Assembly: GCA_019347915.1 (NCBI GenBank)
Contig: JAHWKL010000002.1
Coordinates: forward strand, 2,425 to 66,424
DNA length: 64,000 nt
Reading direction: 5' to 3'
DNA from: Actinomycetota bacterium
Lineage (GTDB): Bacteria; Actinomycetota; Acidimicrobiia; Acidimicrobiales; CADCSY01
The position numbers were made by a program, and so were the translations under genes. Below the pieces are notes generated by a model, which did not search any database, was not told the origin of the DNA, and was given only the letters and a program-made list of their open reading frames with translations. How positions within the stretch are numbered: position 1 is the first letter of the stretch; each line of letters begins with the position of its first letter. This document shows, one piece after another, positions 8,601-32,600 of the stretch.

Positions 8601-11600
8601 GTCGGTGTGCGGGCCGCCGGGCCGGAAGTCGGCCAGCGAGGAGATGAAGATGCGGTCGTCGCCGGCACCGAGCCGGATGTCGGTGCGGAACGTCGCGCCC
8701 GTGCCCTGGACGTTGAGGACGTGCGCCGCCGTGCCGAGACCTAAGGTGATGTCGAGGATCTCGAGGCGGTGGTACTGCAACCCGTCGGTGCGCAGGGCGA
8801 CGCCGGCGTTCCTGGTCGGGTCGAGGTCGAAGGCCTGCAACTGCGGCGCGCTCGCGCCCGCCAGCTCACCGTGGAAGCCGATGAGGAAGTCGTCGCCGAC
8901 CTGCCAGACCCAGACGCTTGGGGCGCAGTCGCTGGTACCGAGGTCGCCGCAGCCGGTCTCGTCCCAGTCCTGCTCGGTGACGACGTGGAAGGGGTCAGCC
9001 TCGCGGCTGGGCCCGTTGTAGTTCATGCCCAGCGGGAAGATGAGCGCCTGGACCGCCGTGGCCAGGTTCACAGAGGTGAGCGGCAGGATGCCTGCGGCCC
9101 CGTCGCCTGCCTGCGGGGCACCGACCCGGAACTGCAGAACGCCGTAGCCGGCCACCACGAGGGTGATGATCTCCGCGGTACCCGGCCGGAGCGCCCACAC
9201 CTGGTCCGTGCCGGGCGCCATGTCCAGCCCGGTCACCGACGTCGGGGTCACCGTCGCCCAGTCCGGATCCGGCTCGGCGCTGTCGTCCAGGTGGACGTCG
9301 TCGAAGCCGGCGCCGCCGTCGACGGTGAGCAGCGCTCGGATCTCCTCGACCGTCCGGCCACCGGACACGGTGATGCCCATCCGCACGGTGTCGTCGCCGT
9401 CGCCGCCGTAGACGACGGTGTGTCCGGCGACGGTCTCGACGTGCACGGTGTCGTCGCCGGCGCCGGTGTCGATCAGCGTCGTGCCGGCGTGCGTCGACTG
9501 GACCGTGAAGGTGTCGGCTCCGTAGCCGAGGAGGATCTCCAGGGCCTCGAGGTCGAGGTAGGTGATGCCACCCGGGAACAGGCGGCCGGCGACGAACAGG
9601 TCGGGTGCCATGCCCAGGCCGGTGATGCGCGTCGACGTCAGGTTCCCGATGTCGTCAGCCGGGCTGTCGTCGTTGCGGACGACCAGCCGGTCGACCTGCT
9701 TGGCCTCGTCGACACGGATGGTGGGCAGCACGGGCGGCTTCGGCGGTCCGGAGAGCTCGCCCGGCAACACGATCGGCAGGTAGCCGTCGAGGGAGGTGTT
9801 GAAGGCGGGGTCAGGGTCCAGTCCCCCGATGACGAACAGCGGCCCCTGGACCACATGGGCCCGCCGGGCGACCGGTGCGAAGGCCTGGAGCTCGCCGCCG
9901 TCCTTGACGCCGTCCACGACGGCGGTGACGACGACGAGCTTGTCGAGGTCCCAGTTGGTGTCGTCGAACTCGACGTAGTACCTCGTGTGACCGTCGACGG
10001 TCACACTCCCCACGTCGGCGCCGCTGAGCGTCACCTGGACGCGCTCGGCCTCCACGAACTCCTGGACGGCGTTGTCGAAGTACGCCGTCGGAGTGGGGTC
10101 GGGCGAGAGCCAGATCCGCACCGCTCCGCCTGGCGCCCGGGTGAGGCGGACGGTGTAGGTGTCGGTTGCTCCACCCTCGACCACACGGGTGGTGCCGTCG
10201 CTCTGGGCGATGATGACGCCCGGCGTGTCGCTGTCGGCGATGCCAGCGGAGACCCGTTCGATCTCGACCCCGTGGATGCCCACCACTGCGATCTGCGTGC
10301 CCTCGCCGATGGTCCCGGCACCCCAGGCATCCACGGTCGTGATGGTCCACGCCGTGTTCGATGCGATACGCCGGTACTCGCCGGGTCCGCTGCCGTCGAC
10401 GACGCGGACGATGGCACCGACCAGCCCGCCGCCGGCGGTGGGTAGCGACGAACCCGCCTGCGTCAGGGTGATCGTGCGCCCGGACACCGACTCGACGACG
10501 CCACCGATGAAGCCGAGCGCCGGCGGCGGCGCGTACCCGGTGATCACCCAGCTGGCGCCGGTGCCGGGGAGGACGTCCCACGGCGTCTCGGTGGCCACCA
10601 CCAGGCCGTCGGCGGTGACAAAGCTCTCGAAGATCCGGCGGTACTGACCCTCGCCGGTGCCGTCGTAGATGCGCAAGAGGTAGCCGCGCAGTGCGTTCAA
10701 GAGGAGCGACCCGGCCGGGAGCCCGGCGGTCGGGATCACGATCTCGTTCTTCTTGCCGGTCACGGCGAGACCGGCGCCACTCCACACCTCGCCGGTGCTG
10801 GTGATGGTCTGGGTGACGTAGCCGAAGTGGGGCCCCTCGACGACGCTGTCGTGGATCGCCTGCAACGTCACCGTCTTGGACGCCCAGTCCGTCGGCGTGA
10901 AGGTCAGGACCGAGCTGTCCACCACGGCCAGCTGCGGGCCGGGGTCGATCGTGATGACGATGGTGGTGAGCGGTGCGCGGTTGAGGCCGACGGTGTAGGT
11001 CGCGGTCGAACCGCTCATCGACACGACCGCCGCGTTCACGACGTAGGGCTCGACGACCCTCACGCCGCCCGCCGGGAGCTCGACGACCACTCCGACGGCG
11101 TTGCCATCGAGCACCCGCACGAGGGTATTGGCGACCTGGATGCCGTCGTAGCCGCCACCTTGGACCATGGTCTGGAGGACGACCGACCGCTCCCCCTCGG
11201 ACGAGTTGTCCTCGATGGCACGCACGAACACGGTCTGGGCCACGTCGTAGTCAGAGGCGTCGAACGACAGCGTTGCGGTGGTGCCCCAGACGACCCCGTC
11301 GACGGACAGCTCCACGCCGCGTGAGCGGGACGCCGAGGACAGGTTCACGGGCGGCGCCTGGATGGTGACCGTGACCGAGCTGGTCGGCACCATGCTCAGG
11401 TACACCGTGAACTGACCCTGGGCACCGATCGGCGCTCCGGTGACGCGGTCCTGTTCGCGAACCAGGAGCCCGCCGGTCGGCGGCATGATGACCACGGCGG
11501 GTGCATCGGCGTCGACGACCTCGGCGGCGATGCCGTCGATCGGCACGCCGTTCCAGCCCGCCGGGGCGTTCTCGACGGAGTGCGTGATGATCCCGCTGTG

Positions 11601-14600
11601 GCCGAGCAGGTCGTCGGCCTGCACCACCGGCGCGTGGTCGGCGACGACCACGGTGTCGCTCCCCAGCCCGCCGACGATCCGCGTCTCGACATTCGGGTTG
11701 GTGGACTGCACGTAGAACGAGTCGTCCCCCTCCATGCCGTCGATGACGAGTCGTTCGATGTTGAGGAAGCTGACGAAGCGCCCGGCGCCGTACACGCCGG
11801 TGTCGGTGACGACGAACGTGTCGCCGAACTCCGTGCCGACGATGATCACGGTGTCGTAGCCATCGCCGCCGTCGATCGCCACCGGGGCGTTCATGGCGTA
11901 CTGGACGAGGTCCCGGCCCACGCCGGAGCGGACCTTGGTGAGCTCGGAGTCGGCGACGAAGGTACGGATGACGAAGGTGTCGTCGCCGTCCTCGCCGTTG
12001 AGGGTGAGCACGCCCTTGTTGCGGAAGACGTCGAAGATGTCGTCGCCGGTGCCGCCGTTGATGGTCACCGGGTGCGACACGCCGTTGGTCAGCCAGCCGC
12101 GGGTGGAGGCGAAGAAGTTGGCGTCGAACTCGGGGTTGCCGGGCAGCCCGGTGCCGAAGGGGACTCCGAACTCGTGTCCGTTCGAGTCGTAGTCGGTGAG
12201 GATCTGGCCGACGTAGAAGCGGTCGTTGCCGCCGTCGCCGTTCACCGTCATGAACGACGAGGTGTCGTCGAAGGCGAAGGTGTCGTCGCCGTCACCGCCG
12301 TTGACGATCACGCCTCCGTTGATCGTCGCGCTGTACACGACCATCTCGGCATCCTGGAACATGCCGTCCCCGTCCGGCCGGGTGAGCTGGGCGATGAGGT
12401 CTCGGCGGAAGAGGAAGGTGTCGGCGGCGGGCGAGCCGGTGACGATGAGGACGTTGGAGTCCTGGTCGGGATTGGTCGTCTCCCCCACGCCCGGGGCGCG
12501 GAACCCGTCTTCCACGTCGACCCGGGTGTTGCCCTCGCCCCAGAGCCCGACGATGAAGTAGTCGGAGCCGTGGCCTCCACGCAGCACGAGGTGGCCGCCG
12601 AGGCCGTTCGGCTCACCGGCGGTCACGATGGGGTTGACGACGAGGATGTCGCCGCCCGCCTGACCGTCGACCGTCGTGTCGGCGGCGATCGTCTCGATCA
12701 TCACGACGTCGTCGCCGGCACCGGTGGCGATGGTCGTCGGACCCGGTGTCGAGTCGACGTTGACCACGTCGTCGCCCGCACCGAGCCCGACCGCCAGGGC
12801 GTCGAATCCGATGTAGCTGATCCAGCCGTCGGACATGGCCGTCGCACTGATGGTGGCGGTCTCGCCGGTCGGCGCCTCGAGCGGCGTTGAGCCGGGGTCG
12901 TGCGTGATCAGGTGGCTCCAGCCGGCCGCGCCTGCCAGCAGGCCGCGGTAGGCGATGACCCAGGTGTCCCCTGCCTTCGTGACGACGACCTTGCCGGCCA
13001 TGCCGGGCAGCGCTTCGAGGGCCTCGAGGACGTCCACGGCGGAGGCGTCGAAGTCGAGGTCCCACGTGGTGCCGGCGCCGGCGACGACCAGTCGGAAGCG
13101 GCCACCGATGGCGTTGTGCACCCGGACGACCTGGACCAGGTCGGGAAGGGCGAGACCTCCGCTCTGCAGACGGACGGACTCGTTGAACGCCATGCCCAGA
13201 CCGCTGATGCGGGTGGCGGTGACGACACCGATGCGGTCGTCGGCCACCGATGCGCCGGTGTCGTCGACCTGCAACGTGTCCGTGCCGCCGCCGGCGACGA
13301 GGTCGAGGTGCGCCTGGATGCCGGTGAGCACGCCCCCGGTCATGACCGGTGCGGTGCTGCCGACGCGCACGGTGTTGTCGCCGATTCCGAGGTCGATGGA
13401 CGTCGGGCCGTCGATGGTCTTGACGTTCACGCCGTCGCCGCCGTCGTTCGTCTGCAGGATGGTCCGGTAGCTGCGGACCGGTCCTGTCTCGCCGTGGGTG
13501 CTGTGGACGGTGAAGGTGTCGCTGCCCGACCCGAGGGCGATCCGCAGGTCCTCCAGCTCGGTGTAGATGATCCCCGCCGGCGAGAGTCCCAGTCCCTGGA
13601 GCAGGTCCTTCCAGAGCTGGCCGGCGGTGGCGCCGCTGCTGGCCAGGCTGTCACGGGTGTCGTCGACGGTGAGCAGGTCGAGCCCGCCACCACCGGTCAC
13701 GGTGAGCGCGGCGGCGATCTCGTTGACCGTTCCGCCGGCGTTGGACCACGCGGTGGCGGTGTGGGTGGCGGCGGCATTGCTGCCGACGGCGACGACGTCG
13801 TCACCCGAGCCGACGTCGATCAGGTGGGGGACGTCGATCTCGCGGACCGCCACCCGGTCGCCCCCGCTGAGCGTGCGGATCTCGACGAGCTCGACGTCGA
13901 GGTGGTCGACGGTGACGAGGTCGGAGCTGGCACCGGGCGCCCGCAACCGGACGTAGCCACGGCCACCTGCGGTCTCGACGACGAGGTCCTCGCGCTGGCT
14001 CGTACCCCGGACCTCGAGCCGGTCCGAGCCGCCGCCGTCGTCGACAGTGACACGGGCGCCGGCCGCGGCCCGCAGCTCGACCCGCACGACGTCGTCGCCG
14101 TCGCCGGCGGCGAGGGTGGCGTCGGCGGTCCAGGGTCGCGCCGAGCGGGCGCTGGAGCCGACGGCCACCGTGCCGTCGGCGTCACCCACGAGGAAGGTGT
14201 TGGCCCGGGCGTCGCCGGTCAGCTGGGCCTGCTCGAAGATGCCCTTGATGTCCTCGGCGATGCCGCCGGCGGCGAAGTCCACGCTGCCGGTGACGGCGCC
14301 GACCACGAAGAGGTTGTCGTAGAGGCCGAACGAGACGAACCCGCTCGCCGGGCTGTAGTCGCCGAGGCCCTCGACGAGGGTGTCGTTGCCGCCGGCGTCG
14401 TGGAAGGCGTCGAGCCCGGGGCCACCGGTGAAGGTGTCGTCGCCGTCGCCGCCGTCGAGGACGTCGTTGAAGCGGGAGCCGACCAGGGTGTCGTCGCCGT
14501 CGCCGCCCCGCAGCGTCACCGCCACCCGGTCCTCGCTCAGGCCGTAGGCGTCGATGGTGTCGTTCCCGTTGCCGGACTCGATGACCAGCCGGTCGCCCTC

Positions 14601-17600
14601 GCCCCGGACGGTCTGGCCCACCCACACGGTGTAGCTGCCGCTGCGGGCCACCTTCACTTCGCTGCCGGTGCGCCCGGTCGACGAGGCCTGCCCCTCGAAT
14701 GTGACCGTGTAGGCGTCGGCGCCGTTCGAGCCCCGGATGGTGATGGTGTCGCCGGCGGCGTCAGGATCGATCCGAACGTCGGGCACCTCGCGGGCGAACG
14801 TGGCCCCGTCGATGGTGACGGTCTCGGTGCGGGTGCCGTTCACCGTGACCCGACGGCCGAGGTCGATCGTGAGGTTCTGGACGCCGGAGCTGCTGCCGAG
14901 GTCCTCGACCACGAACGTGTCGGCGCCGGCCCGCCCGTCGATGAAGAAGCTCTCGACCGTCGAGACGTTGCGGTTGGTGCCGTTGAGCGCGAGGCCGACC
15001 ACGTTGGCGCTGGGCGAGGAGATGACCAGCGTGTCGGGGTTGGCCGAGAGCGTCAGGTAGAGGCTGTCGGTGCCGGCACCGCCGGTGATGGTCGGGGCCT
15101 GGGCGCCGTCGATGACGACGAAGAGGACGTCGTTGCCTTCCTCGCCGTCGAACTGGCCCGCCACACCCTCGAGCACGTCGTCGCCGCCGCCGCCCTTGAG
15201 CGTGTCGGTCGGGCTGCCACCGATGAGGTGGTCGTTGCCGGAGCCGCCGTGCAGCGTCGCCGTCCCCGAGCCCCGGTGCACCAACATGTCGTCGTCGCCG
15301 TCGCCGTTCACGGTGGCGTCGCCGGGGCCGGTGTGCTCGATGTAGTCGTTCCCGGCTCCGCCAGAGAGCGTGCTGTCGCTGGCGGTGCCGGCGTAGGTGA
15401 TCACGTCGTCGCCCTCGCCGCCGGCGATGAACACCGGCACCTTCACCGAGTGGGCGATGACGATGGTGTCGTTGCCGTCGCCGAAGTCGGCGTGGATCTC
15501 GTTGACGTGCTCGTAGGTGTTGCTGCGGCCGAAGGCGGTCACCTTGATGGTGGCGCTGGTGTCCGTGCCGCCGACCTGCTCCACGAGGAACATTTCCTCG
15601 ATGTCGTCGGTGGCGATGTTCCTCGCCGTCCGCCTCGTCGAGGATCCCGCGTTCAACGTCAGCTGGGTGTGGCCCGAGTCCCACGTGCGGGTGCCGTCGA
15701 AGCCCGCCAGGTACGTGGGCGGCGGGAACTGGAGGTAGCCGATGGTGAAGCGGGCGGTCTTGGTGACGCCGATCCCGAGCACGGTGACGCGGACCTTGAC
15801 GGTGAGGACGATCTCGACCTTGCCCTCCGGGCCGGCGGTTGCGGTGTCGAGGTCGAACGAGAAGCTCAGGCCCACGCCGGCCAGCGTGATGCCGAAGGCC
15901 CGCACCTTCACGCTGGCCGAGCCGCTGAGGTGGAACACGTAGGTGTCGTGGGGACCGGATGATCCGCAGTTGGTGAGCTCGGAGCGCACGCAGGAGGTGA
16001 CCCGGAACGAGAAGTCACCGCGGAGGCCGAAGCTGTCGGAGCCGAGCTGCATGCGCCCGGCCAGCGAGAGGTCGAAGTTGCCCCTGGAGTCGAGGTAGAT
16101 CGAACCGCTGAGGCGGGCGAGGCCGAAGAAGTCGACCGACGCGTTGGCGTTGAACGACCACTCGCTTCCCGACACGACGATCCGCAGGCCGGCGTCGAAG
16201 TTGAACACCTCGAGGATGCTGACCTTGCCACTCAGGTCGAGGACGAAGGTCTTGGCGCCGATGCCGAGGAGCCGGGCGTTGCTGGTGTTGATCTGCAGCG
16301 TTCCGGCCGCCTCGATGGAGAACACCGCGGCGTCGGCCTTGGCGCTGATGTTCAGCGAGAGGGCGAAGCCCGGGTTGGGCCCGCCGACCACCGCCGCCCC
16401 GCCGTCGGCCCGGAACTGCAGGCCACCGAGATCGAAGCCGATCCCGAACAGCAGCTGGAAGCCGGTGGGCGAGACGCTGACCTCGACGAAGCCGTCGGCC
16501 TCGGTGCCGAGGAGCTGCATCGATCCCTCGATGCGCAGGAGGAAGCCCGGGTTCACCGTGGTCGATCCCAGCGTCTGGACTCGCCCGGTGGTGTTGAGCG
16601 CGACGATTGCGCCGACGTCGAGACCGAGTCCGATCTTGTCGCCGAAGTTCGCGTCCAGTTCGACCTGGACCCGGGCGACCAGGCCTTGCGAGTTGATCCG
16701 GAACCCGGAGTCGATGAGGCTCACGCCCCCGATCGGGTCGAGGTCGAGCGAGCCGTTCACCACCAGCTCGATGCCGGGGTTGCCGCCGGCCAGCTCGAGG
16801 CGGAACATCACCGAGCCGGTGACCGTGAGCCGCTCGGCGATGATGAGCAGACCCGACATCTCGAGCTTGAACCCGCCGACCGTCTCGATCGTCTCCGCCT
16901 GGGCGACGAGGTTGCCGGCGGCGTTGCGCTTGAAGCCGTCGAAGACCTTGACCCCGGACTCCAGTGTCCGGGTGTTGACGGCGAAGGTCTGGATCTTCTG
17001 GGCGGTACTGAAGGTGTTGATCTCGAGCAGGAACTGGCCGCTGAAGACGACACCCGGGATCTGGTTGCTGCCGAGGGTGAGCTGCACGCGGCCGACCACG
17101 CCCGTCTTCGCCCCCGCGTAGACGGCGAGGTTGAGCACACCGGTGAGCGATCCCAGGAATGGGATGGTGGTGCCGACGGCGCCGTCGACCTCGAGGTAGG
17201 CGAACCCGGACGGGTCGACGGCGGCCGTGATCCCGATGTAGCCGTTGAGGGTGAAGGCGCCGCCGATGCTGATCTGGGCTTGCACGATGGCCTTGACGTA
17301 GACCTCGCCACCCGGCGCGCCGTTGGGGTCGCGCCGGCCGTCGACGCCCGGTGCCGACTTGAAGACGGTGATGGTGGTCGGCTCCCCGGGCCGCAGCAGC
17401 GGCAGGAAGGCCGGTGGGATGGTGAAGGTCTTGTCCTTCAGCGTGGTGTTGAACATCACCGTGACGCTGCCGGTGGCGCTGAACAGGCTGCCGACGTCGG
17501 GGAGGCCGATGCCGCCGCCGGCGGCCACGGTGAAGGTGCCGGCGATGCCGTCGGTGGAGATGATCAGCAGGCCGGTGACCGAGCCGTAGTTGAGCCGGGC

Positions 17601-20600
17601 ATTGCCGCTGCCGAAGGAGAGCTCGCCGGTCAGGTACATCTGGAACGTCGGCGTCGCCGACGCCTCGATGCTGAGGAAGAACCCGCCCTGGACCCGCAGC
17701 AGCTCGGTGGTGGTGCCCGGCACCGACACGATCGCCTGGCCCACCAGCTCGATGGCGAAGCTGTACGGGTTCAGCGTGAACGTGCGGACCAGGTCGGTGC
17801 CGCCGGCGCCGAGGCCCCGCAGTGTGAGGGTCTCGACCTTGGTCTGCGCCGTGAGGTTCACCTGCAGCGTGCCCTTTGCGAACAGCTTCAGGCCGTAGGG
17901 CTCCAGCGCCGAGAAGTTGGTCTCGAGGGTGGCCACGCCCCAGAACTGCGGGATCTCCGAGAGGCCGTCGCCCATGTCCAGCACGAACCGGCCGGCGGTG
18001 GCCCCGACGGTGCCGAGCTTGATGATGGACAGCTGGCCGGCGAAGGTCAGGGTGAACAGCCGCCGGGCCGAGTCGATCTCCAGGATGACCTCAGCCTTCA
18101 GGTCGAGGAGGGGCTCGTCCAGCCCGGGAGCCTGCAGCAGGATGCCGCCGGAGAGCTCGATGAAGAAGGAGGTGCCCTGGGTGATGAGCTTGAACGAGCC
18201 CGACCCGGCGGCGGCGCGGTTGCCGGCGGAGTCGTTCCAGGCGCCGGCCACGAACGCCACGTTCACGGTGCCGGCGGTGAGCGTGCCGGTGTAGATGTAG
18301 CGGAAGGTCGTGGCGTCGATCCGGTGGACCGAGACGAACGACAGCGCCTCGCTGCCGGCGCCGGTGAGGACCAGCTGGCCGCCGGCGAGGATGCTGGCCA
18401 CGTCGACGGTGGTGCCCGGCACCGGCGTGAACACCACGTCGAGCCACGTGCGGGGGCCGACGGTCGACTCGTCGACCGACGACTCGACGGTGGCGGCACT
18501 GGCGAACACTGCGGTCCACGCCGTGCCGCCGGTGTCGGCCCAGCTCCCGTCGATGAACGACACGACGAGGCTGCCCCCCGTGTGCCCGGTGAAGAAGTAC
18601 CGGTACGTACCGGTCGCAGCGTCGACGAGCACCGGCACGCCGAGCACCGCCAGCTCGACCCCCGTCGAGGTGGTGATGGTGATCTCGGCGCCGGCGTCGA
18701 GCACCGTGGCGGCGTCCACCGCAGACCCGTCGAACGAGGCGAAGGTGACGTCGACGTGGCCCCGGCCGTTGAAGGCGTCGGTGCTGAGGACCCCGACCGG
18801 GTTCTTCAGTGCTGCGATCGGGACGGCAACGTCGAACGACTCGCTCTCGCTGTGGTTGCGCTGTTCGCCGGTGTCGGCGAAGGAGCCCGCCACAAACGTG
18901 ATGCTGTAGCGGCCGACCGAGAGCGTGGCGTCGAAGCCGTAGCGGTAGGTGTCGCTCAGGCCCACCCGGACCGGTGCCGACAGCGGGATGAGGTTGCCGG
19001 CGGCGTCGCGCAGGTAGATCTCGTCGCCGTCGATGGTGGCGTGGTCGATGGCGAAGCCGGAGGAAGGGCTGAAGCGGATCTCGATGTAGGCCCGCCCGTT
19101 GAGCAGGTCGCGGCCGATGGCGGCGCCGGCGAGCGGGACGACGGTCTCGGGCGTGTCGTCGTCGGCCGGGATGGTGGTCACGACGTCGGCGGCGGCGCCG
19201 GTGACGAGGAACGACTGCGTCACGCTGAGGCCAACAGGGGGCCCGCGGATCGGGTTGTCGCCCAGCTCGTCGATCTGGATGACCACGTCGACCGGGCCGG
19301 CCACGAACGAGCCCTGGAGCAGGTAGCGGTAGGTGGTGCCACCGAGGTGGATGGGGTTGCTTCCGGAGGGCACCGTGACCGTCGATCCACCGAAGCCGCC
19401 GATGGTGATCACCACGTCGTTGATCGTGCCCAGGTCGAGGATGCTGCCCGCGGCGGGGACGAAGGTCACGTCGATGAACGTCTGATCGACGGTCGGCACG
19501 GTCACCGGCACCGCTCCGGGCGGGCCCGGCTGCGTGCCGGTGTCGTCCTCGGCCGTCCAACTGGTGCTGCTGGCGGCGAGCGACACCGTGACGTCGAGGT
19601 CGGCGGCGCCGGCGGTCTCGACGATCACCGGGACCAGGAACCGGTTGGTGTCCCCGATCTGGGTGACCGGGCGGGTCTCGTCCAGGGTGACGACCCACCC
19701 CGATCCGAAGACGAGCTGGAGGCCAGGGTGGCTCGCTTCGGCGTCGACGAACCCGATGCCGCCGTAGATGGTCCTCGCCGCCTTCTCGGTGGGCAGCGGC
19801 ACCCCGCTCAGCGTGAGCACCGAGTTGCCGCCGCCCGAGATGCCGGCGACGGTCCAGGTCCCCGCCAGCCCACCTATGAGCACGACCTGCCCAACCCGGA
19901 AGCCCTGCGCGACCCAGTCGACGGGACCGGTCACCGTGCCGCCGCTCCCGGTCGAGGCCAAGGTGAACGCGGCCGACACCACGAGGGCGTCCGTCACCGA
20001 GTCGGGGTCGAGCTCGAAGCCGGCGGGCACGCCGTTGCTCTCGGCCGACGGGAAGGTGACGGTGACGGTGCCCGGCGTGTCGCCGGCGGCGATCGTGCCG
20101 CCGGAGACGGCGCCGGTGACGAAGTCGCCGATCAGCGACCAGCTGCGGGCGATGAAGGTGAGGGTCACCGTGTCGACCGGCGAGGCGAAGCTGCCAGTGA
20201 GCCAGAACAGGAAGCTGAGCGAGCCGTCCACCGTGCCCGGCGTCCCCGAGATCAGCGTCGGCGCCCGGGACGAGTCCAGCTGGACCGAGCTCAGGCCCGG
20301 CCCGGACAGGACGAACTCCGGCTGGAGGTCGGTGATCGACGCCAGGTCGAGGGCGTAGCCCGTCGGCGGTGTGAAGCTGACCTCGATCCAGCCCCGACCG
20401 TTCAGCACGTTCACGTCGATGCTGGAGCCCGGCGTCGGGTCACTGATCACGCCGGTGGCGGCCACCACGGTGAAGCTCAGCGTGGCGGCGGTGTTCCCGG
20501 CGCCGGGCGTGGTGCCGGCCTCGCTGGTCACGTCGGCGTTCTCGAACGTGCCGGCCGGGAAGTCGAGCTGGACGACCCCCATGTCGACGGCGCCGGCACC

Positions 20601-23600
20601 GAGGTCGTAGCGGAACATGCTGACGCCCTCGAGGCTGCTGGCGGCGGCGAGCAGCTCGCCGTCGGTCGGGTTGCCGCCGAGGTCCTCGACGGACAGGACG
20701 ACCACCTCGGTCTCGGTCGTCTCCACCGGCGGTGTGTAGCGGTACACGACCTTCCGGCTGGCGCCGCTACCCACCACCTGGAGCGGGACGGCCTTCAGGC
20801 CGTCGGCGGTCTGCACCAGGACCAGCGGCACGGGCGACCCGCCGACGGTCCGGCTGGTGCCGTTGATGGTCAGGGCGAACTCGCCGCCGGGGTCGAGGAT
20901 CGAGAGATGGTCCAGGCTCGCTCCCGACGGTGCCGTGAACACGACGTCGAGGTAGGGGTTGCCGCTTGCCGGGTTCACCGCGCCGACGTCGATGGTCCCG
21001 CCGTTGGTGACCCCACCGCCGAGGCCGGCGGTGGGCGCCGTGGACGCCGCCGCCGGGTCGCCGGCGTCGACGACGTCGAAGATGACCTCCTCGCCGGACG
21101 AGTTCCGGAAGCCCATCTTCAGCTTGCCGTAGATGGACAGCAGGCGGACCTGGTCGGGGATGTCGGCGAGGAAGAGGATGACGACGTCGCCGGTGGCGAC
21201 CCGTGACAGGTCGGCGTAGAGGCGGCCGGAGATCGAGATGTTGTTGGCGGCGAAGTTCAGCGTGCCGCTGACGAGGATCTTGCCGTCGGTGGAGATCTTC
21301 ACGAGCACGACGCCGTTGAACACGGCCTCCGAGGTGTAGATCGAGTAGATCTTGGCCGACCCGGTGATGACCATCGGTGACGTGAAGGCGGCGAGGAAGC
21401 CGTCGCCGGCGTTCCCGGCGGCGACGGCGGCGGCCTGGCGGGCGACCTGCTGCTGCAGGGACGCCAGCCACTGGTCCGCCGTCTGGGCGGTGGGCAGCGC
21501 GAACGCCGACGACCGGAGGGCGAAGGGGTCGTCGATGGATGGCAGCGTCTTGAAGAACTCGACGCCGGCGGCGAAGTCGTTGATGGTCAGGCCGGAGATG
21601 GGCTCGAGGAGGATGCCGCCGGGGACCTCGACGTTGATGAACACCTGGAGCGGGCCGAGCTCGGACAGGCCGAGGCGGATGGTGAAGCCGGCCATGCCGG
21701 CCATCGAGAACCCGCCCTGGAGGCCGAGGTAGAAGAGCCGCTGGTGCACCGGCGTGGTGTTGTCGAACGTGCCGATGACGTTGTAGTTGCTGTCCAGCTT
21801 CAGGATGCCGCCGATCAGGCCGGCGTCGATCTCGCCGCCGAACATCGAGCCCTTCACCTGCACGGCGATGGCATCGATGCCGATGATGGGGAACTTGCCC
21901 TGAGCCAGCAGCAACGGCTGGATGCGCACCCCGCGGATGGAGCCGCTGAACTCGAGGCCCTCGAGGCCCTGGATGGCGGTGACCGAGGCCGACAGCGTGA
22001 GGACGAAGTCCTCGGGCGCGCTCTCGATGTCGGCCCACTGGATGCCGATCTCGTCGATGCGGACGGGCAGGAACGATGGCCACTGGAACGAGTCGCCGGT
22101 CGCCGATCCGACCGAGAGGAAGACCCCGAACCCGGGCCGGGTCTGGAAGGTGCCGTCACCCAGGAACTGGAAGTTGCGGGCCTGGCCGCTGAGCGCCAGC
22201 GAACCGATGTTCACGGTGGCGCCGATCGACTGGAACGACAGCATCACGTCGGTCGTGCCGGCGGCGCCGGTGTCGAGACGGAGGTCGCGCGCCCGCAGGG
22301 TGACGTACGTGCCGAGCTCGAGCTCGAGCGTGTCGATGGTGAGCTGGAAGGCGTCGACCCTGCCCTGGCTGAAGGTGAGGGCGATGCGGAACGCCTCGGT
22401 GTCGGGCGTGCCGTCGGGGCGCTTGTCGTCGGCCGTCTGCCGGTCGAGCAGCGTGGCCGAGAAGGCCTTCCCCGGGAAGAGCTTGGCCCCGCCGGTGGCG
22501 ATGTAGACGTTGCCGGTGAAGGCGCCGAAGGCGTCCCCGGCGCCGATGGTGACGGTCAGGCCGGAGATGCCGATCCGGAGGTCGTCGAGCTCCAGGATGC
22601 CGGCGAAGGAGACCTTCTCGTCCGTGGTGCTCGTGGTCAGGCCGTTCCCCGGCTGCGTGGGTGGGAGGCCGTAGGCCAGCTCGACGGTGCCGAGGCTGAA
22701 GCCGTTGCCCCGCACCACGAGGCCCGGGATGATGCCGGGCGACAGCTCGTCGTCGTTGGTGAGCGGCTGGCCCAGGTCGTTGGTGGCGATGTTCGACCGG
22801 TCGGACGGGTCGTACGGCCGGATGGTGCCGGTGACCCCGAAGCTCGGGAAGGTGATCGTGGCGCTGTTGACCTTGACCAGCTCCTGGTCGACCGGGGCGA
22901 GCGGGTCGTAGGAGACGACGATGCCGCCGGCGACCAGGTCGGCGACGCCGGGGATGTGGGCCCCCAGCGATGCGGCTCGCAGGCCCCACTTGCCCGTGGG
23001 CTCCACCCAGAAGTTGCCGCTGAGGAGCCCGAAGACGTCGACGGCGAGGTCGAAGGTGCCGAGGATCCCGATCAGGTCGACCGTCACCCCGCTGGCCGTC
23101 TGCGCGGTTTCGCCGGCGCTCGGGTTCGACGGCGTCCCGCCGAAGGCGAGGCTGGCACGGTCGACGCCCACGGCGATGGTGAGCACGACCATGCCGTCGT
23201 CGTAGCCGAAGTCGGCCAAACCGATGCTCGGGCCCTGGAGCGACAGCGGTCCGAGAGCGATGGCGCCGCCGGTGGTCGCCGCCCCGGGCGCCGAGGCGTC
23301 GATGGTGAAGGCGGCGGTCAGGTCCTGGACGTTGGCGTTGTCGTCGCTCGTCCCGTCCGTCGCACCCTCGCTGAACCACGTGCCGTCGAAGAGGACGTTG
23401 ACGGCGCCGGGACCGAACATGGCGGTGGCGTTGGCGGCGTCGGCGTCCTCGAGGAAGTAGCGGTAGGTGACGGTGGTGGCGGTGTCGGCCCGGCCACTGA
23501 TGAGCAGCGGCACCCCGATGATGGTCGGCCGGTCGCTGACCCGGAGGAGGTCGAGGACGCCGGTACCGGTGAGCTTGAACGGTGCGGTGGCGACCGCGAG

Positions 23601-26600
23601 CGACGACTTCTTGATCGGGGTGCCGTCGAGGCTGGTGTAGGTGATGTCGAGGTAGCGCTGGGCGTTGATCTGCGCCGCGGTGATCGCTCCACCGTTGGTC
23701 GGGTTGGCCAGGGTGGCGATCGGGCCCGGCTTCGGATGGGGGTTCGTCTCCGTCGGCGTGACGAGGAAGAACCGTTCCTCCTCGACCATCGACGTGGAGC
23801 CGCCCAGGTCGCTGAAGCCGCCGGCGAGGAACCGGACGGTGACCACGCCAGACGTCGGCATGTCGCCGGTGACCGCGTAGCGCCAGGTGTTCGCAACCGC
23901 CGTCGGCACGGTGGCGACGGTGAAGCCGACGGCGGAGCCGTTGACCAGGATCTCGATCTCGGCGCCGGGGTCGGTGATGGTCTCGGGACGGAGACCGACA
24001 CCGTTGACGTCGTTGAAGACCACGTCGACGTACCCGGGGAAGGACGCCGGGGTGATGGTCGTGTTGCCAAGCGGTGCCGCCAGGTCGGCCGTCGGGAACA
24101 GCGTGGGCTTGGCCGGGTCGGCGGTCGGCGCCTCGCTTCCCTGCGGGGGGAAGAGGTCGAACCCGTCGACGCGGAAGTTGTTGAGGCGGAAGCCGGTCAG
24201 GGGCGAGATGGTGAAGGACCCGAAGCCGGCGAGGCGGGCGATGTCGGTGTCACCGATGGTGATCAGCACCGCCGCCTGGGCCATCGTGACGTCGAGCGTG
24301 CCGTTGGGCTGGCGGGTCAGGCCCAGCGTGCCGGTGAGCTGGAAGACGCCGGCAACGGCGATGACGACGTTGCTGGCCACGAACGAGAACCGCCCGCCGG
24401 CGAGCGCCGTTGCGTGGTTCGGCACCGTGATGGAACTGGTGGACGTGTTGACCTCGAAGGTCACGTCGCCGGACACGGCGAGGCCGTCGAGCCCGACGAA
24501 GGCCAGCGTGCCGGTGGCCCGGAGGGCGTAGCCGGTACCCGTGCCGGGGGTCTGGAACCCGACGGACGCCCCGGTGATGCGGACGCCGATGGCGTCGGGG
24601 TTGAGGTCACCGGTGCTGAGCCATCCGGGGCCCTTGCCGATGAAGATCTCCAGGTTGCTGCCGCTGAAGGTGCCGCCGCCGACGGCGAAGTCGCCGCGGA
24701 TCTCGAGGATGCCGCCGAAGTCGAAGTCGAGGTTCTGGATCCGGAAGAAGAAGGTCGGTGATTCGGCGAGGTCGAGGACGACCTCCGTGTCCCCCACGTC
24801 GATGGTCTGGTTCACCTGCACGCCGGTGGTGTTGATGGAGAAGCCGACGTTGGCGTCGAGCGGGAAGCCGGTGGCTGCTGTGACCACCCGCCCGGAGAAC
24901 AGGCCGGCGACGCCGCCCGAGGTGGTCTTGGGACCGGTGGAGGTCCTGTCCTCCGTCGTGTAGGCCCCGGGCGGGAAGATGACCACGGCACCCTGGATGC
25001 TCCCGAGGCCGGGGCTGTCGTCTCCGACCTCGTCGGCCGCCAGCGACCCGTTGGCCAGGGCGATGCGGGTGACCTGTGAGCCGGTGGGACCGACCCGCTC
25101 GAAGGCGACGTCGGCGCGGACGTCGACACCGGCGATGGTCAGAACGACGTCCTCGGCCGCGACCCGCAGGTACGGGCCCTTGGGCAGGGCGAGCACCCGG
25201 ACGTTGGGGACGATCGGGGGACGGTTGCCGTTGGCGTTCCACGTGACCGTGTAGCCCCCGGTCACCGCCACCACCGTGACGTTGTCGCCGGAGCCGTACA
25301 GCGCCTCGATGGCGGCGTCGACCGTGGCGGCGTCGGCACCGACGACCTCGATGGCGTGCGAGATCTCGTGGGCGTCGATCTTCCCGTTGCCGTTCACGTC
25401 GAGGGCGAGGGTGAAGGTGCCGGCGGTGACGCCGACGGAGACCGTCTGCACCTCGGCGGCGCTGGCCGACCCCTGGGTGTCGGTGACCACGTCCACGCCG
25501 GCGAACTGGATGGTCTCGTTCACGGGGACGGCCAGGTTGTTCACCTGGAGGGTCAGGCGGGCGTCGAAGGAGATGGGAAGGTTCTTCAGCTCGACGTTGC
25601 CGGTGATCTCGCCGGCGACGCCGGCCGGGGTGAGGACGAAGGCGCCGGCGCCGTCCGTCAGGTGCAAGCCGACGTCGTCGGTGTCGCCGGGATCGTTGGC
25701 ATCGCCGAGGAACAGCTCCACCTCGGTGAAGGCCACCCGCACCACCTTGGTGCCGGCGGCCGTCGTGCGCTGTTCGAACACCACCACGGCCTGGAGCTGC
25801 TGGCCCATGACGGTGACGCTGATGGGCGAGCCGAGGGAGCCGGCCTGGATCCGCAGGTAGGGCCCGGCGGGCAGCGTGGCGGTGGCGGGCGTCTGCTCCG
25901 TCGTGATGTAGTCGACCGTCTGCTGCGCCGTGGTGTTGTTGATCTGGACGGCGGTGGCACCGCTGAGCGAGAAGGTGCTGGTGAGCGCCGGGAGCGTGAG
26001 GGTGGCCGGGATGTTCGCCGCCACCCCCTGGGGCGTGATCTTGATGGAGCCGGTCGGGATGTGGACCGGGACGAACGTCGTGGTGCCGTTGCCCAGGGCC
26101 AGGGTGACGTCGGTCAGCTCGATGGTGACGGTCTGGGTCGACGGGTCCTTGCGGAAGGCGAAGCCGCCGGTGAGCCGCTGACCGGCCACCTCGAGGGTCA
26201 CACCGGTCCCGCTGACCTCGAGCCCGGGCTGGATGACGTCGTCTCCGACGGTCCGTGCCGTGGTGAGGGTGTTGATGGCGATGCTGAACGTGCCGGACAG
26301 CACGACACCGGGGATGTCCACGGCGACGGTGGCGGTCAGGCGACCGGCGACGCCGCCGGCGGTCGTGGCGGTGGCGCCGACCATCACGAGCTCACCCGAG
26401 CCGTCGGTGACGAGCACGATGTCCCGCTCGGGGGTGCCGATGCGCAGGCTGACGTTGGCGAAGGCGACCCGCAGGTCGTACACCGGCGTCGCCGGCGTCA
26501 GGATGGAGCCGTCGGCGGCGAGCCGGGTGCGGCGCTCGACCGAGAGGTCGGCGGTGACGCGCTGATCGGCCATCACGAGCGACAGGCCCGTGACCGAGAC

Positions 26601-29600
26601 CTTGACGTAGGGCCCGACCGGCAAGGTGAGGGTGGTGGTGGTCCCGCCGCCGACGAACTGCTCGTTCACGGCGAGCGGCATCACCTTGGCGCCGACCGTC
26701 TGCTGCAGCTGGTTGATCTCCACGGTGACCGTGGCGCTCGCCGAGCCGAACGTCCCGCCGAGGAGGAGGCTGGCCGTGCCGCTGATGCGGCCGGCGAAGC
26801 CGTTCGGCGTGATGAGCAGGAAGGCCGACCCGTCGCTGACGTGCACGCCGATGTCGTCGGCGTCACCGGGTTCACCGGGTGCGCCGACGAAGAGCTTCAG
26901 CTGCGACACGCCGATCCGCACGATCTGCTGGTCGTCGGTGGTGTCGAGGACGCCGTCGGCGCCGGCGCTTTGGACCTGCTCGAACAGGAACACGCCCTGG
27001 ATGCCCTGGGCGAAGGCGGTGACGCTCGCCAGCGTGGTGGAGTCGCCGAGCTGGAGCCGCACGAACCGCCCGGCGGGCAGGTCGAGGCCGAGCGTCGTGT
27101 CGACGACGGCGGTCGGGGTGGTGTTGATCTGGAGGCGGACGGCGAGCGAGCCGAGCGTGAGGGCCAGGTCGTCGAGCCCGACGAGGGAGATCGTCCCGCC
27201 CACGTCGGCCGCCACCCCGGTCGGCTGCAACAGCAGGCTGCCCATCCCGCCGGTGATCTTGACGCCCCGGTCGTCAGTCGTGTCGGTCAGCGTGGCCCCG
27301 TCGTCGCCGAGGAACAGCTCGCCGTCGGAGATCGACACCTTGACGATGCGGGTGGTGCCGGTGGTGACCTGCTCGAAGGAGAACGTCCCCGACAGCCGTT
27401 GCCCGCCGATGGCGAGGCTGACGCCGGTCCCCCGCAGGCGCAGGTACGGGCTGGGCCCGGCGGTGTCGAGCTCGAGGGCCAGCGTGCCGGACAATCCGAC
27501 GCCGGGGACATGGAGGGCGACCGTGCCCGACAGGCTGCCGGAGATCCCCGCAGCGGCGATCGTCAGGTTGCCGGCACCGTTGGTCAGGGTCACGAGGTCG
27601 GTGGTGCCGGTGCCCAGGCGCAGGGTGATGGCCGACAGCACGAGCCTGGTCGTGGCGGTCGGGGCGGATCCGACCTGTTCGAGGGCGATGTTGCCGCTGA
27701 GCGTCTGGCCGAGGACGGCCAGTTGGACGTTGTTGCCCGAGACCCGCAGGAAGGGACCGGCAGGCAGGTCCAGCGAGACGGTGGTGCCGGCCAGGGCGAC
27801 CGACTCGGTCACCTGCCGGGAGGTGCGGTTGAGGGCCAGGCCGAAGTCGCCGGCGAGCGCCACGCCGGTCGGGAGCACCGAACCGAGGTTGACGGCGCCC
27901 TGCAGGGTGCCGGCCAGGCCGTCAGGTGCGAGGACGAGGATGCCCCCCACGCCAGTGAGCAGCCCGGTGGTCCCGCCGAGCGACAGGCTGCCGCCGGTCA
28001 CCGCGATCACCGTGCGCTTCTGGCCGGCGGCGTTGGTGGCCGTCTGGATGGTGAACGACGCCTGCAGCGTGGGGCCGCCGGTGCCGAAGGTGAGGGTGAC
28101 GTTCTCGCCGAGGAAGCGCACGTAGGGACCGGCCGGCAGCCGGGTTCCGTCGGGCAGGACGACGGCGGTGGTGGCGTTGTTGACCTGGAGCGTGAACGTG
28201 CCGGTGATGCCGACACCGGCACCGAACGAGAGCGCGGATGCGACGGTGAGCTCGCCGGCCAGACCGGCCGGCGCCACCGCCAGCTCACCGTTGAGCGTGA
28301 CCGTCCCCAGCCCCTCGCCGAGGTCGAGGAGCAGGTTGGTGACGATGATCTCGACGGTGCGGGAGCCGTCGGCGGCCGTCTCCTGCTCGAAGGAGACGTC
28401 GCCGGTGAGCGAGATGCCGGCGACGGTCAGGGTCACGGCCGTGCCGGTGATCTTCAGGTACGGGCCGGCGGGGAGGTCGACGGTCAGGACGCCGATGCCG
28501 CGGGAGGTTCCGAAGGCGGCGCCCGTGCCCTTGCGCCAGGTCGCGGCGCCGGTGCCGGCCGAGGTCACGAGGTCGGCGACGGTGTCGCCGTCGAGGTCGC
28601 CGACCCCGATGGCCACCACCGTCCCGATCCCCAACGCCGAGGCGGCGGAGAAGCCGGCCCATGTCTCGTCACCCGGGTTGAGGGCGACGTCGACGCCGGT
28701 ACCGGTGGTGCGGACGAGGTCGAGGGTGCCGTTGCCGTCGACGTCGGCGAGGACCACCGCCGTGCTGCCGGAGGTGCCCGGCGCGGTGGCCGCGGTGAAG
28801 GTCCCGTCGCCGGCGCCGAGGTGCAGGCTGTCCGCGGTACCCGAGAGGCCGGAGCCGACGACGAGGTCGAGGTGGCCGTCGTCGTCGACGTCACCGAGGG
28901 CGATGACCGCGGCGGCAGAGCCGACACCGGCGAGCACCGAGCCCGTCCCGACGCCGTTCCACTCCCCCGTGCCGCCGTCGACGCCGCTGTTCAGGTACCG
29001 GGTGACGTCGGAGCCGGCCGCCACCAGCACGTCGCCGAAGCCGTCGCCGTCGAGGTCGCCGACGGCGATCGACCGGGCCGAGGATCCGAGGTCGGGGCCG
29101 CTGAGGACCTTGAACAGGCCGGTGCCGTCGTTGAGGTAGACGAGCGTGGTGGCGCCGGAGCGGCCGACGACGAGGTCGGGCCGGGTGTCGCCGTCGAGGT
29201 CGTCCAGCGCCACAGCGGTCACGCTGTCGGCGTCGGGCCCGACGAGGATGGCCGGCACGACGTCGAAGGGGTCGCCCACGCCGTCGTTGAGGTAGAGGAG
29301 CACACCGGCGGCGGTGCCGAGGACGAGGTCGGGGCGGGTGTCGCCGTTGACGTCGGCGACGGCGGCCGAGGTGGTGGTGCCGGGCTGCAGGCCGAACCCG
29401 ATGGTGTCGAGCACCGCGCCGTCGGTGGTCGGGCGGGTGTTGACGGCCAGCGCCAGCGTGCCGGCGAGCGAGGCGCCCGGGATGGTGATGGCGACGGTGC
29501 CGGACAGCGTGCCCGCCAGTCCTCCGACCTTCGGCCCGGTGCCGTCGGGGTCGCCCAGGAGGAAGAAGCCGGTGCCACCGGTCAGGGTGACGAGGCGGGT

Positions 29601-32600
29601 GGTGCCGTCACCGAAGGAGGCGCTCACGTTGCGGGCGGCGACCCGGACCACCGAGGCGCCACCGGGGATGGCCGCCTGGTCGAAGACGAACTCGCCGGAG
29701 AGCCGCTGCCCGGCGAACACGAGGCCGGCGCTGCCCTCGACCCGGGCGTACGGGCCGGCGGGCAGGTCCAGCGTGATCGTCTCGCCGTCGAAGACGAACG
29801 ACTCGCGGACCCCGGCAGTGGTCGTGTTGACGGCCACCGTGAAGGTGCCGTCGAAGTCCACTCCACCGCCGGGGACGGAGAAGGTGACGGTGCCGCCGAT
29901 CCGGCCGGCGAGCCCCGCGCCGGTGAGGACGAAGAACCCGGTGCCGGCGCTCAGGGTGACGACGCCGCCGCCGAGCGACAGCGAGACGTCGGTGGCCGCC
30001 ACCCGGATCGTCTTCGCGGCCACGGTGCCGGGCGGGGCCGAGGGGCTGACCGTGCCGGTGACCTGCTCGAAGGCGAAGACGCCCGAGATGCTCTGGCCGG
30101 CGAGGGTGATGGACGCCGGTGCCGCCGTGGTGCCGAGCTGGACGCGGATCGAGCTCGCCGGAACCGTCACCGTGCCGGCCGTCTGCTCGGCGGAGGTGGT
30201 GTTGATCCGCAGCTCCACCGGCAGCAGCGTGGCCTGGAGGCCGGGGAAGTCGAAGTCGGCGCTGGCACTGACCACGCCGTAGACGCCCGCCGCCGTGATG
30301 GTGAGGTCGCCCGACGAGATGGTCACGACCACCGGGGCGGCGCCGCCGCCCACCGGGTCCCCGAGCGAGAGGACGATCTCGCCGTCGGCGAACGCCGAGC
30401 TGCCGAGCTTGACCTCGAGCGTGGTACCGGACTGCGCAAAGGAGAACGCACCGACGAGGCTGATCCCACCCATCCGGAAGGTGAGGTTCTCGGCGCCCAG
30501 CAGGGCGTAGGGGATCTTGGGTGTCGGCGGGTCCGGATCGGCCGGCGTCGCCGCGGGCACCTGGAACTCGGTGTCGACGAACTGCTCCGTCAGCGTCTCG
30601 TTGTAGCGCACGTGGATGGTGCCGCTGAGCTGGAGGCCGGGGATGCCCAGCAGCTGCACCGTGCCGCTGACGCTGAACGCACGGCCCGTGGCGTCGGAGA
30701 ACGCCATGCCGCTGGCGTTGGTGATGAGCAGCCCGCGTGCGGTGGGGTTGAGGTCGTCGCCTTGCAGGAAGGCCGGGCCCTGGCCGAGGAAGACGGTGAC
30801 GTCCGTGACGGTGACCACGCCGCCGGAGAAGTCGACCGTCCCCAGGATCTCGACGAAGTCGCCGAGCTTGACGACACCGGAACCGGAGAAGGCCAGGAAC
30901 GGGCCCGGGAAGTCGGGGCGATCGGCGACTTCTTTGGAGGAGAACACGATCGGGATGGTGACGCCGGCCACCTCGATGATCTCGTCCACCGCCGAGGTGG
31001 AGCTGTTGAACCGCACGGCGATGCTGACGTCGGCGTTGAAGCCGCCGCCGAGGACGTTGTCGGAGCCGACCGCGGCCGTGCCCGAGAAGGTGCCGGCCAC
31101 GCCGCCGCCGGTGCCGCCGAGGATGATGAACGCCCCCTGGCCGCCGGTGACCCCGATGTCGGTGGTCAGGACCACCGACACGCCGGTGAAGGCGAGCTTG
31201 GTGATCGCCACCGGCTGGTTCAGGAACAGCGTCGCCTGACCGGCGGCGCCGCCGAGCACCAAGTCGAGATCGGCATCGTCGTCGACGTTGACCAGCACCA
31301 CGTCGGTGGCGCTCGCCCCGCTCGTCGTCATGTCGGTGCCGTTGCGGAAGCCGAGCCAGGTCGTGGCATCCCGGCCCCGGTTGAGGAACAGCACCGGGTT
31401 GCCGGTGGTGCCGAGGACAACGTCGAGACGACCGTCGTTGTCGACGTCACCCACCGCGACGGCTCGCCCGGCCGGCGTCGCCGGCGAGGCTGCCAGGTCG
31501 ACACCGGCGTCCAGTCCCGCCCACGCACCGGAGGTGAACCCGCGGTTGACGTGGACGAGCGCCGGCCCGCCGTCGACGGCCACGACCACGTCGGCGAAGC
31601 CGTCGCCGGTGACGTCGCCCGTTGCCACTCCACGCACATCGGCCGTGTTGGCGACGGGCGTGGCAGTGGCGAACGCCTGCCAGACGCCGCCGTCATCGGC
31701 GCCGCGGTTGACGTAGACGCTGTGGTCGACGCCGGTGTTGGCGACGAACAGGTCCAGCAGGTCGTCGTTGTTCAGATCGACGAGGGCGAGGCCGGTCGTG
31801 GCGCCGTTGGCCAGGAGGTGGTCGGCGGTGGCCGGGAAGCCGTTCCACGGGTCGGCCTCGCCGGCCTTGCCGCCGTTGAGGAAGAGCTTGGTGTCAGCGC
31901 CCGTCCCCGTGGCCCCCACGACGATGTCGGCGAACCCGTCACCGTCGACGTCAGCCACCGCCACCGAGGTGGCATCGGGCGTGGTGAGGGTGGCGCCCGT
32001 GTCGAACCCGAGCCATCCGCCGGTGACCGGGTCGTTGCCGAGGTTGCGGGCCACCGCGCTGGTGCCGTTGCGGATCACGACGGCGTCGAGCAGCCCGTCG
32101 GCGTCGAGGTCGCCGAGGGCGACGGCGACCGTGGTGCCCGCGCCCTCGGTCACGGTGTCGGCCGAGGTGGAGGCGAACGTCGCCGGCGCGGTGCCCAGGA
32201 ACAGCGCGGCGCCGGTGGACGAACCGATGAGCACGTCGAGGCGGCCGTCGCCGTTGACATCCCCGATGGCCACCGGGCTGGCGCCGGTCGTCGCCTCGCC
32301 CAGGGCGGTGCCGGAGCCGGGGAAGCCGGGTCGCGTGCTCTGGGACAAGGCGAACGAGCCGCTGAACGAGAAGCCGCCCACCCCCAGGGTCCCCTCCACG
32401 GCGACGTGGAGGAACGGCGGTGCCGGCCCCGTGTTCAGCTGCAAGGAGGCGGTGCCGCCGGCGAGGGTGATGCCGGCGGGCAAGGTGAAGATGCTGATGT
32501 CGCCGGTGCCGTCGTTGTAGACGAGGTCGCCGGAGAAGGTGGCGGCGACGCCGCCGGGCGTGACGACCAGTGCCCCCTTCCAGTCGTGCGCCGGCGTGAT

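Follow-up and report, generated by a model that had tools for sequence, protein, structure and literature searches.

The question raised by this locus is what occupies the centre of a giant protein encoded on the Acidimicrobiales contig JAHWKL010000002.1. The whole stretch of DNA analysed, 64,000 nucleotides in length, is called the window here, and it contains on its minus strand a single open reading frame (ORF) of 14,578 amino acids (aa) with no internal stop. A sequence-only reading of the window had singled out positions 21060-23330 (minus strand) as a unique domain of about 760 aa, a candidate for the ligand-binding or enzymatic head of the molecule. This stretch, referred to below as the central domain, is in frame with the giant ORF and corresponds to aa 7636-8392, which is 52–58% of the way along the protein and in agreement with the central position it had been given. 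We found that it represents a real, well-delimited domain family that is missing from Pfam, NCBIfam and the PDB, and the alignments indicate that it forms the opening part of a larger beta-sheet core that is interrupted by inserted repeats. It is a new domain family inside an already known kind of protein. The features of this part of the protein, in window coordinates, are as follows.

2499..46235, minus strand: the giant ORF, 14,578 aa, with the ATG at aa 29 as the likely start
24084..25184, minus strand: upstream beta-rich block (aa 7018-7384), made up of the last PAGPYLR/VNTT-type unit and the strands that follow it
23331..24083, minus strand: two beta-rich units of ~105-125 aa (aa 7385-7635), adjoining the domain upstream and collinear in homologues
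22266..23273, minus strand: N-terminal half of the central domain (aa 7655-7990), predicted long antiparallel strands, moderately conserved
21072..22265, minus strand: C-terminal half of the central domain (aa 7991-8388), universally present and the most conserved piece
21381..21527, minus strand: predicted helical insert (aa 8237-8285), from DSSP of the models, with invariant Trp8256, Gln8263 and Gln8267
18192..21071, minus strand: inserted array of ~105-aa beta-rich units (aa 8389-9348), between the two core parts
15486..18191, minus strand: second core part (aa 9349-10250), beta-rich, with turn motifs of the form '..INTT..', ranking second in conservation

A domain family missing from the databases

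No Pfam family was matched at E≤1 over aa 7246-8578. With the domain as query nothing was found at E≤10, and across 35 family members there were only scattered one-off matches, the best with an E value of 0.045. NCBIfam likewise gave no match to the stretch, bearing out the earlier statement that no family could be recognised. The best matches among PDB sequences were at chance level, with E values of 1.4 for the query and 0.47 for a profile search with 35 members. A word-indexed search returned 64 matches with 45–69% identity over the full length, all of them unannotated, and when 1.84 billion cluster representatives were searched exhaustively with phmmer, 692 matches were obtained at E≤1e-3, including 320 at E≤1e-30. 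In the phmmer matches, the domain was usually found once per protein, in proteins of up to 7,267 aa.

When one genome per species was scanned, the number of species with the domain came to at least 249. The loci retained, 80 in number, belong to Actinomycetota, Verrucomicrobiota, Planctomycetota, Desulfobacterota, Pseudomonadota and Chloroflexota, and one further contig is labelled Chitinophaga. The carriers in the Actinomycetota include Microbacterium, Oryzobacter, Agrococcus, Solirubrobacter and Acidimicrobiales. In 47 of the 81 loci a single ORF covers the whole 22.5-kb locus, which places the domain in the interior of ORFs longer than 7,400 aa. Every homologue is named 'hypothetical protein' at its source. 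Seeding a profile search with distant homologues added no further taxa or annotations, and publications on giant genes of planctomycetes offered nothing at the level of domains. The distant homologues carry a C-terminal dockerin and cadherin-like/Big_9 domains. An 837-aa protein (P0005) that was considered as a stand-alone form of the domain was rejected, as it represents only a piece of a giant gene that has been frameshifted. A 944,442-bp contig of a Planctomycetaceae metagenome-assembled genome (MAG) includes two genes with the domain, LVR18_14500 and LVR18_14345 (P0045 and P0209), and some genomes may therefore contain two paralogous giant genes.

The conserved block in the homologues extends from aa ~7655 to 8388, close to the limits originally drawn, and a self-BLAST with 150-aa tiles found no internal paralogue of aa ~7726-8325, in support of the uniqueness claimed for it. 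Further stretches free of paralogues were found at, for example, aa 9826-10200 and aa 11776-11925. The four peptides that had been quoted from the stretch were all located, at aa 8050, 8147, 8254 and 8295, and all fall within the C-terminal half. The compositional claims fared less well. The stretch was said to have the highest sequence complexity in the gene, but ranked ~58 of 553 by entropy among 757-aa segments, with the most complex segments at aa 13,400-14,300. It was also said to be the only long stretch rich in aromatic and polar residues. Its aromatic content (0.083 against a protein average of 0.056) ranks ~69 among the 757-aa segments and is equalled or exceeded by that of aa 9353-10250 and aa 13400-14250, while its polar content (0.221) is lower than the protein mean (0.236).

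A core split by an inserted repeat array

The region spanning aa ~7000-10,400 was collinear in 11 tabulated loci, which represent six phyla. Upstream of the central domain the spacing was fixed, including that to the block at aa 7018-7384, and downstream of it the spacing was variable. In the window protein, the central domain is separated by 960 aa from the second block (aa 9349-10250), which likewise lacks a paralogue, has no Pfam match and shows 50–62% identity across phyla. The insertion ranged from 511 to 1,443 aa in 66 related loci, in steps of ~105 aa, and was missing (0 aa) in distant homologues. In five of the latter, namely P0167, which is a complete 4,249-aa Verrucomicrobiales protein, P0151, P0147, P0169 and P0184, a match to aa ~7700-8384 was followed within ≤~5 residues by a match to aa ~9353-10,120. 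When aa 7640-8388 was joined to aa 9349-10250 and the spliced sequence was used as the query, single BLAST alignments crossed the splice junction for all five. The junction in the distant homologues reads GAVTFGFTRLDGTAVTATNQADNFELRISGG, and the window protein has GKLKMGFRNSSGEEVIFDV, then the 960 aa, then KLITQGTSFFIELSGG.

The alignment at the junction corresponds to a strand, a short loop and a strand. As the flanking strands are contiguous in the distant homologues, the repeat array appears to sit in a hairpin loop. We infer from these alignments that the two core parts are continuous in three dimensions. The second block becomes a series of regular ~95-aa repeats with 'F.LE.NTT' turns in the distant homologues. 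The N-terminal half of the central domain is triplicated in P0167, where there are two extra upstream copies, and is absent from some of the alignments (P0147, P0169 and P0184), suggesting that the universal core consists of the C-terminal half and the second block.

The repeats on either side of the central domain had been described as Ig-like stalks, a description that found no support. The adjacent ~105-aa units have no Pfam match, and a profile of the unit gave no significant match to PDB sequences. The N-terminal stalk (aa ~1500-7370, window about 24100-41700, minus strand) consists largely of a different repeat of ~125 aa with the motifs 'LPAGPYLR' (PAGPYLR) and 'VNTT', which also matched no Pfam family. 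Two FG-GAP/VCBS stretches (aa ~4600-5900, window 28536-32438) break up these stalk repeats. None of the repeats of the giant protein matched a BIg or cadherin Pfam model. The possibility that the central domain is itself a diverged ~125-aa stalk repeat was considered and rejected, the comparison giving a probability below 5%.

Conservation of the core

When 100-aa tiles were compared with 47 full loci, the tiles covering aa 8001-8400 gave median scores of 132-144 bits with 67-70% identity. Tiles at aa 7701-8000 scored 68-104 bits, and most of the flanking tiles scored 27-89 bits with ~34-48% identity. A second peak of 85-122 bits was found for tiles at aa 9301-9800, in the second core part. 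The ratio of nonsynonymous to synonymous substitution rates (dN/dS), determined by the Nei-Gojobori method against the closest relative (L002, an Acidimicrobiales MAG), was below 1 throughout the region compared. It was 0.24-0.29 for the C-terminal half (aa 8001-8400) and 0.23-0.28 for the second block (aa 9401-9800). The N-terminal half (aa 7601-8000, 0.46-0.47) has evolved at much the same pace as the adjoining flanks, for which the values were 0.42-0.65 (aa 7001-7400 and 8401-9200).

The exceptionally conserved part of the stretch is its C-terminal half alone. The expectation that the stretch would be better conserved than the linkers thus held for the C-terminal half, by a wide margin, and failed for the N-terminal half in the comparison with the closest relative. 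The idea of a discrete head has to be given up, as the exceptional conservation is confined to one half and the region continues into the second core part.

Predicted structure

AlphaFold2, supplied with an alignment of 65 sequences, modelled aa 7636-8395 with a predicted local distance difference test score (pLDDT) of 84.4 and a predicted template modelling score (pTM) of 0.64. The model of the whole domain contains ~42 strands of 10-18 residues, arranged as consecutive antiparallel hairpins, together with one helical insert. The C-terminal half alone (aa 7990-8395) was modelled with a pLDDT of 89.9 and a pTM of 0.81, with ~24 strands and three helices. A profile self-comparison of the domain using hhalign revealed no internal repeats beyond one weak pair (76% probability).

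Foldseek searches of the PDB with the whole-domain model returned LptD, ushers, porins and the ApoB100 beta-belt, with E values down to 1.3e-7. The whole domain gave TMq values of 0.12-0.21, and the C-terminal half did not exceed 0.33. Against BFVD, the best match was a chorein-N (VPS13-like) protein with a probability of 0.28 and a template modelling score (TM-score) of 0.08. Given TM-scores of 0.08-0.33 and root-mean-square deviations (rmsd) of 14-30 Å, these matches indicate a generic beta-meander likeness rather than a shared fold. The central domain is a confidently predicted all-beta fold without a counterpart in the PDB. The sequence-only reading had named two outcomes that would count against it, a match to a known structural spacer domain and conservation no better than that of the linkers. 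The Pfam, PDB and Foldseek searches yielded no match of the first kind, and neither outcome was found for the stretch as a whole.

Possible roles of the core

We consider it a negligible possibility that the stretch arose as a chance reading frame in high-GC DNA or as an assembly chimera. High-GC DNA does yield many long spurious ORFs, and several overlap the region on both strands. In these, the codon-position composition is shifted, with high GC1 or with high GC2 and high GC3 (G+C content at the first, second and third codon positions), whereas the giant ORF has a GC3 of 0.945 overall and of 0.976 in the central domain. The dN/dS values and the collinear homologues in 249 species also speak against it. 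An enzymatic domain, such as a hydrolase or a self-processing module, is very unlikely. The invariant columns consist mainly of Gly (51), Phe (23), Leu (20), Pro (16) and Asp (11) and include no His, Cys or Glu; at least one distant homologue has Gln in place of the only invariant Lys, and Lys8319 and Asp8317 of an 'STDGK' motif are substituted in distant homologues. With invariant positions that are overwhelmingly structural, no His or Cys and the Lys lost, the pattern points to a constraint on fold and packing rather than to a classical enzyme. No catalytic constellation (His/Cys/Ser triad or HExxH) was found, and no similar enzyme is present in Pfam, NCBIfam or the PDB, leaving the enzymatic head first proposed without support. 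In its favour, Asp8148, Asp8342 and several Ser/Thr are invariant even in the distant homologues, so that a mechanism using the two carboxylates is conceivable, and a 'SIDDP' Asp-Pro motif is conserved in the closer relatives. The presence of metzincin-like HExxH modules at both termini (see below) makes proteolytic biology plausible elsewhere in the giant protein. The other proposal for a head, that the C-terminal half is an adhesive or carbohydrate-binding module placed mid-fibre and conserved for a ubiquitous ligand, is unlikely, less so than an enzyme. The C-terminal half is the most conserved part of this neighbourhood of the protein, it has invariant Trp8052, Trp8067, Trp8256, Tyr8340, Asp8342 and several Gln, and the dockerin and cadherin-like/Big_9 domains of the distant homologues indicate an extracellular setting. 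Aromatic platforms are typical of carbohydrate-binding modules. However, the binding domains of giant adhesins are usually terminal and variable between lineages, whereas the C-terminal half has an internal position and hardly varies between lineages of soil, sludge, marine and host-associated origin. It also runs into a further ~800-900 aa of beta structure instead of forming a self-contained globule, and bears no likeness to a known carbohydrate-binding module, lectin or adhesin in Pfam or the PDB.

Somewhat less likely again is an amphipathic sheet that handles lipids or membranes, forming a groove or tube like those of LptD/Lpt, AsmA/VPS13 or the ApoB beta-belt, or a translocon acting on cell contact. 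The Foldseek matches are limited to LptD, ushers, porins, the ApoB100 beta-belt and the chorein-N protein, and when the sequence is read against the strands of the model a hydrophobic face alternates with one of polar or small residues. In addition, the Chlorochromatium protein Cag_663, which is reportedly transferred to the partner cell, has been modelled with a continuous hydrophobic cleft (10.64898/2026.03.19.712371). Against this, the TM-scores and rmsd values are those of a generic beta-meander, none of the AsmA, TamB and Chorein (Chorein_N) Pfam signatures was matched, the actinobacterial host probably has no outer membrane, and the alternation of faces is equally expected of a soluble beta-sandwich. 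The bolder form of this proposal, in which the core would be a grooved or hollow antiparallel beta conduit, an extracellular counterpart of the bridge-like lipid-transfer proteins or a contact-dependent translocon, appears improbable. If true, it would mean that giant fibres move hydrophobic molecules between cells or insert into the envelope of a neighbour, with the conduit conserved from Actinomycetota to Planctomycetota.

The explanation that we favour, to which we give about an even chance, is that the core is a structural scaffold or keystone of an extended beta-sheet fibre, and neither an enzyme nor a free-standing binding head. The universal core, with aa 7991-8388 running directly into aa 9349-10250, would be non-enzymatic and all-beta, forming an extended antiparallel beta-sheet or beta-helix scaffold. 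The array of ~105-aa units would have grown in a hairpin loop and would loop out of the continuous sheet. In this arrangement the core would link the N-terminal repeat fibre with the RTX-bearing part towards the C-terminus and present the looped-out arrays, and it would probably be the keystone on which folding or assembly of the fibre depends. A scaffold is favoured because of the distribution and conservation of the core, its split architecture, the predicted fold, the pattern of invariant residues and the existence of comparable published architectures. The neighbourhoods of the distant homologues P0167 and P0151 had no partner genes in common. Some observations weigh against a scaffold. 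Conservation of 50-70% across phyla is unusual for a mere scaffold, and such a high level may instead reflect a specific conserved partner or ligand, for which the invariant Trp, Tyr, Asp and Gln residues of the C-terminal half could form the binding site.

Few parts of bacterial genomes are as poorly annotated as those encoding giant surface proteins. The core marks a family of them, found in at least 249 species and at least six phyla, and can be used as a cross-phylum marker of giant secreted proteins and as a handle for classing them as a new Pfam-type family. It also indicates that long repeat arrays can grow inside a hairpin loop of a conserved core. The piece at aa 7990-8395 (pTM 0.81) is a compact construct that could be expressed, and the cultured carriers Microbacterium, Oryzobacter telluris and Solirubrobacter are suited to functional tests.

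Termini of the giant protein and neighbouring genes

Further features were found at the two ends of the giant ORF.

46026..46151, minus strand: probable start and putative signal peptide, aa 29-70 (MDVAATRPSPRGRRLRRATALLAVVSLVVSLLAVVPTSAAEA), from a hydropathy scan
44886-45560, minus strand: N-terminal metzincin-like module, aa 226-450, with the HExxHxxGxxH motif HELGHALGLEH
2895-3473, minus strand: C-terminal metzincin-like module, aa 14255-14447, with the HExxHxxGxxH motif HEVGHVLGLDH

The hydropathy scan found only one strong hydrophobic segment, at aa 45-68, which was read as an N-terminal Sec-type signal peptide, and no second segment of transmembrane strength. A C-terminal sortase motif was not found in the giant protein. 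RTX nonapeptide (HemolysinCabind) repeats are encoded at window positions 14391-14528 and 5676-5798 on the minus strand. RTX blocks normally accompany type I secretion, and the combination of RTX repeats with an N-terminal Sec-type signal peptide in a probably monoderm actinobacterial host is therefore unusual.

The metzincin-like modules belong to paralogous modules of ~200 aa at the two ends of the protein, which share 33% identity (E 6.6e-16). They are matched by Peptidase_M10 over the zinc-helix part only, and the Pfam cut-off of 24 bits was reached by the C-terminal copy (24.1-27 bits) but not by the N-terminal copy (20 bits). The giant ORF includes only 10 cysteines in 14,578 residues, all in closely spaced pairs (aa 214/229, 10082/10090, 12429/12437, 13252/13254 and 13709/13719), an arrangement that hints at local disulfide loops in an extracellular protein that otherwise lacks cysteine.

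At its C-terminal end the giant ORF has ~140 residues (aa ~14,440-14,578, window 2502-2920, minus strand) that are of low complexity and had no counterpart in any of five related C-terminal loci, where residues 1-340 of a 479-residue query were matched. This end also overlaps a convergent gene, and the real stop of the giant protein may therefore lie earlier. The convergent gene (window 1297-2628, plus strand) encodes a NosD-like right-handed beta-helix protein; it abuts the 3' end of the giant gene, with an overlap of 130 nucleotides with the ORF. In an independent metagenome locus (L085) a NosD-like gene is found at 4382-6784, co-directional with the giant gene, and the two NosD-like proteins are 31% identical (E 2e-29). 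This suggests that the NosD-like protein is a linked partner of the giant protein. The other genes flanking the giant gene in the window are ordinary and encode a sugar ABC transporter, a glyoxalase and a MOSC protein. Both the flanking proteins and the best match to the central domain suggest that the host is an uncultured actinobacterium resembling Acidimicrobiales.

Comparison with known systems

Several known systems resemble the giant protein or its core in part. The core is similar to the shells built from RHS/YD repeats (Tc toxins, teneurins) in being an antiparallel, hairpin-built beta structure in a large secreted protein, but the central domain had no RHS/YD (RHS_repeat) Pfam match and no RHS structure was among the top 50 Foldseek matches. 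The bridge-like lipid-transfer proteins (AsmA/VPS13) are recognised by sequence signatures that were not found in the central domain. The outer-membrane beta-barrels (LptD, the FimD/PapC ushers and porins) share with it a long up-and-down antiparallel beta-meander, with the best Foldseek E value of 1.3e-7. They differ in that the TM-score was at most 0.33, below the value of approximately 0.5 expected for the same global fold, with rmsd values of 14-30 Å. The domain is also internal to a soluble secreted protein of 14,578 aa and is found in monoderm Actinomycetota (Microbacterium, Oryzobacter and Solirubrobacter) as well as in diderms.

The giant protein as a whole resembles the giant RTX/BIg adhesins (LapA, MpIBP and SiiE), which are also very large and secreted and have arrays of ~100-aa beta-repeats and RTX nonapeptides. 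Adhesins of this type have a retention module at the N-terminus, ligand-binding modules near the C-terminus and a C-terminal signal for the type I secretion system (T1SS). In contrast, the window protein has an N-terminal signal peptide, its repeats match no BIg or cadherin Pfam model and its conserved unique core is central.

The giant proteins of the Omnitrophota include an AlphaFold-modelled 'tubule', an antiparallel beta-helix of ~1,500 aa with exterior helices (West-Roberts et al., bioRxiv 10.1101/2023.11.21.568195). Judged by description, the core resembles the tubule as an unannotated region of ~1,300-1,500 aa with antiparallel strands and attached helices in a giant extracellular protein, known from AlphaFold only and without a PDB counterpart. 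When the core is read as contiguous, both its length and its secondary-structure class agree with those of the tubule. The distant homologues with a C-terminal dockerin further recall the 'Dockerin-type' proteins of the same study (10.1101/2023.11.21.568195). The differences are that the core is found in other taxa, with no Omnitrophota among the named matches, and that the tubule is 'highly regular' whereas the core of the window protein is non-repetitive over its first ~750 aa.

The protein Cag_663 of Chlorochromatium has been described as a twisted, extended beta-sheet bearing a hydrophobic cleft; BIg-like domains project from the sheet and leave it undisturbed (10.64898/2026.03.19.712371). 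Cag_663 is a reported T1SS substrate of a diderm, unlike the window protein with its N-terminal Sec-type signal and probably monoderm host. The two are alike in having a region without a structural match and a sheet in a giant secreted protein with domains protruding at intervals, a topology that in the window protein is implied by the sequence. By analogy with these published architectures, the insertion of repeats into a loop of the core is the same design principle.

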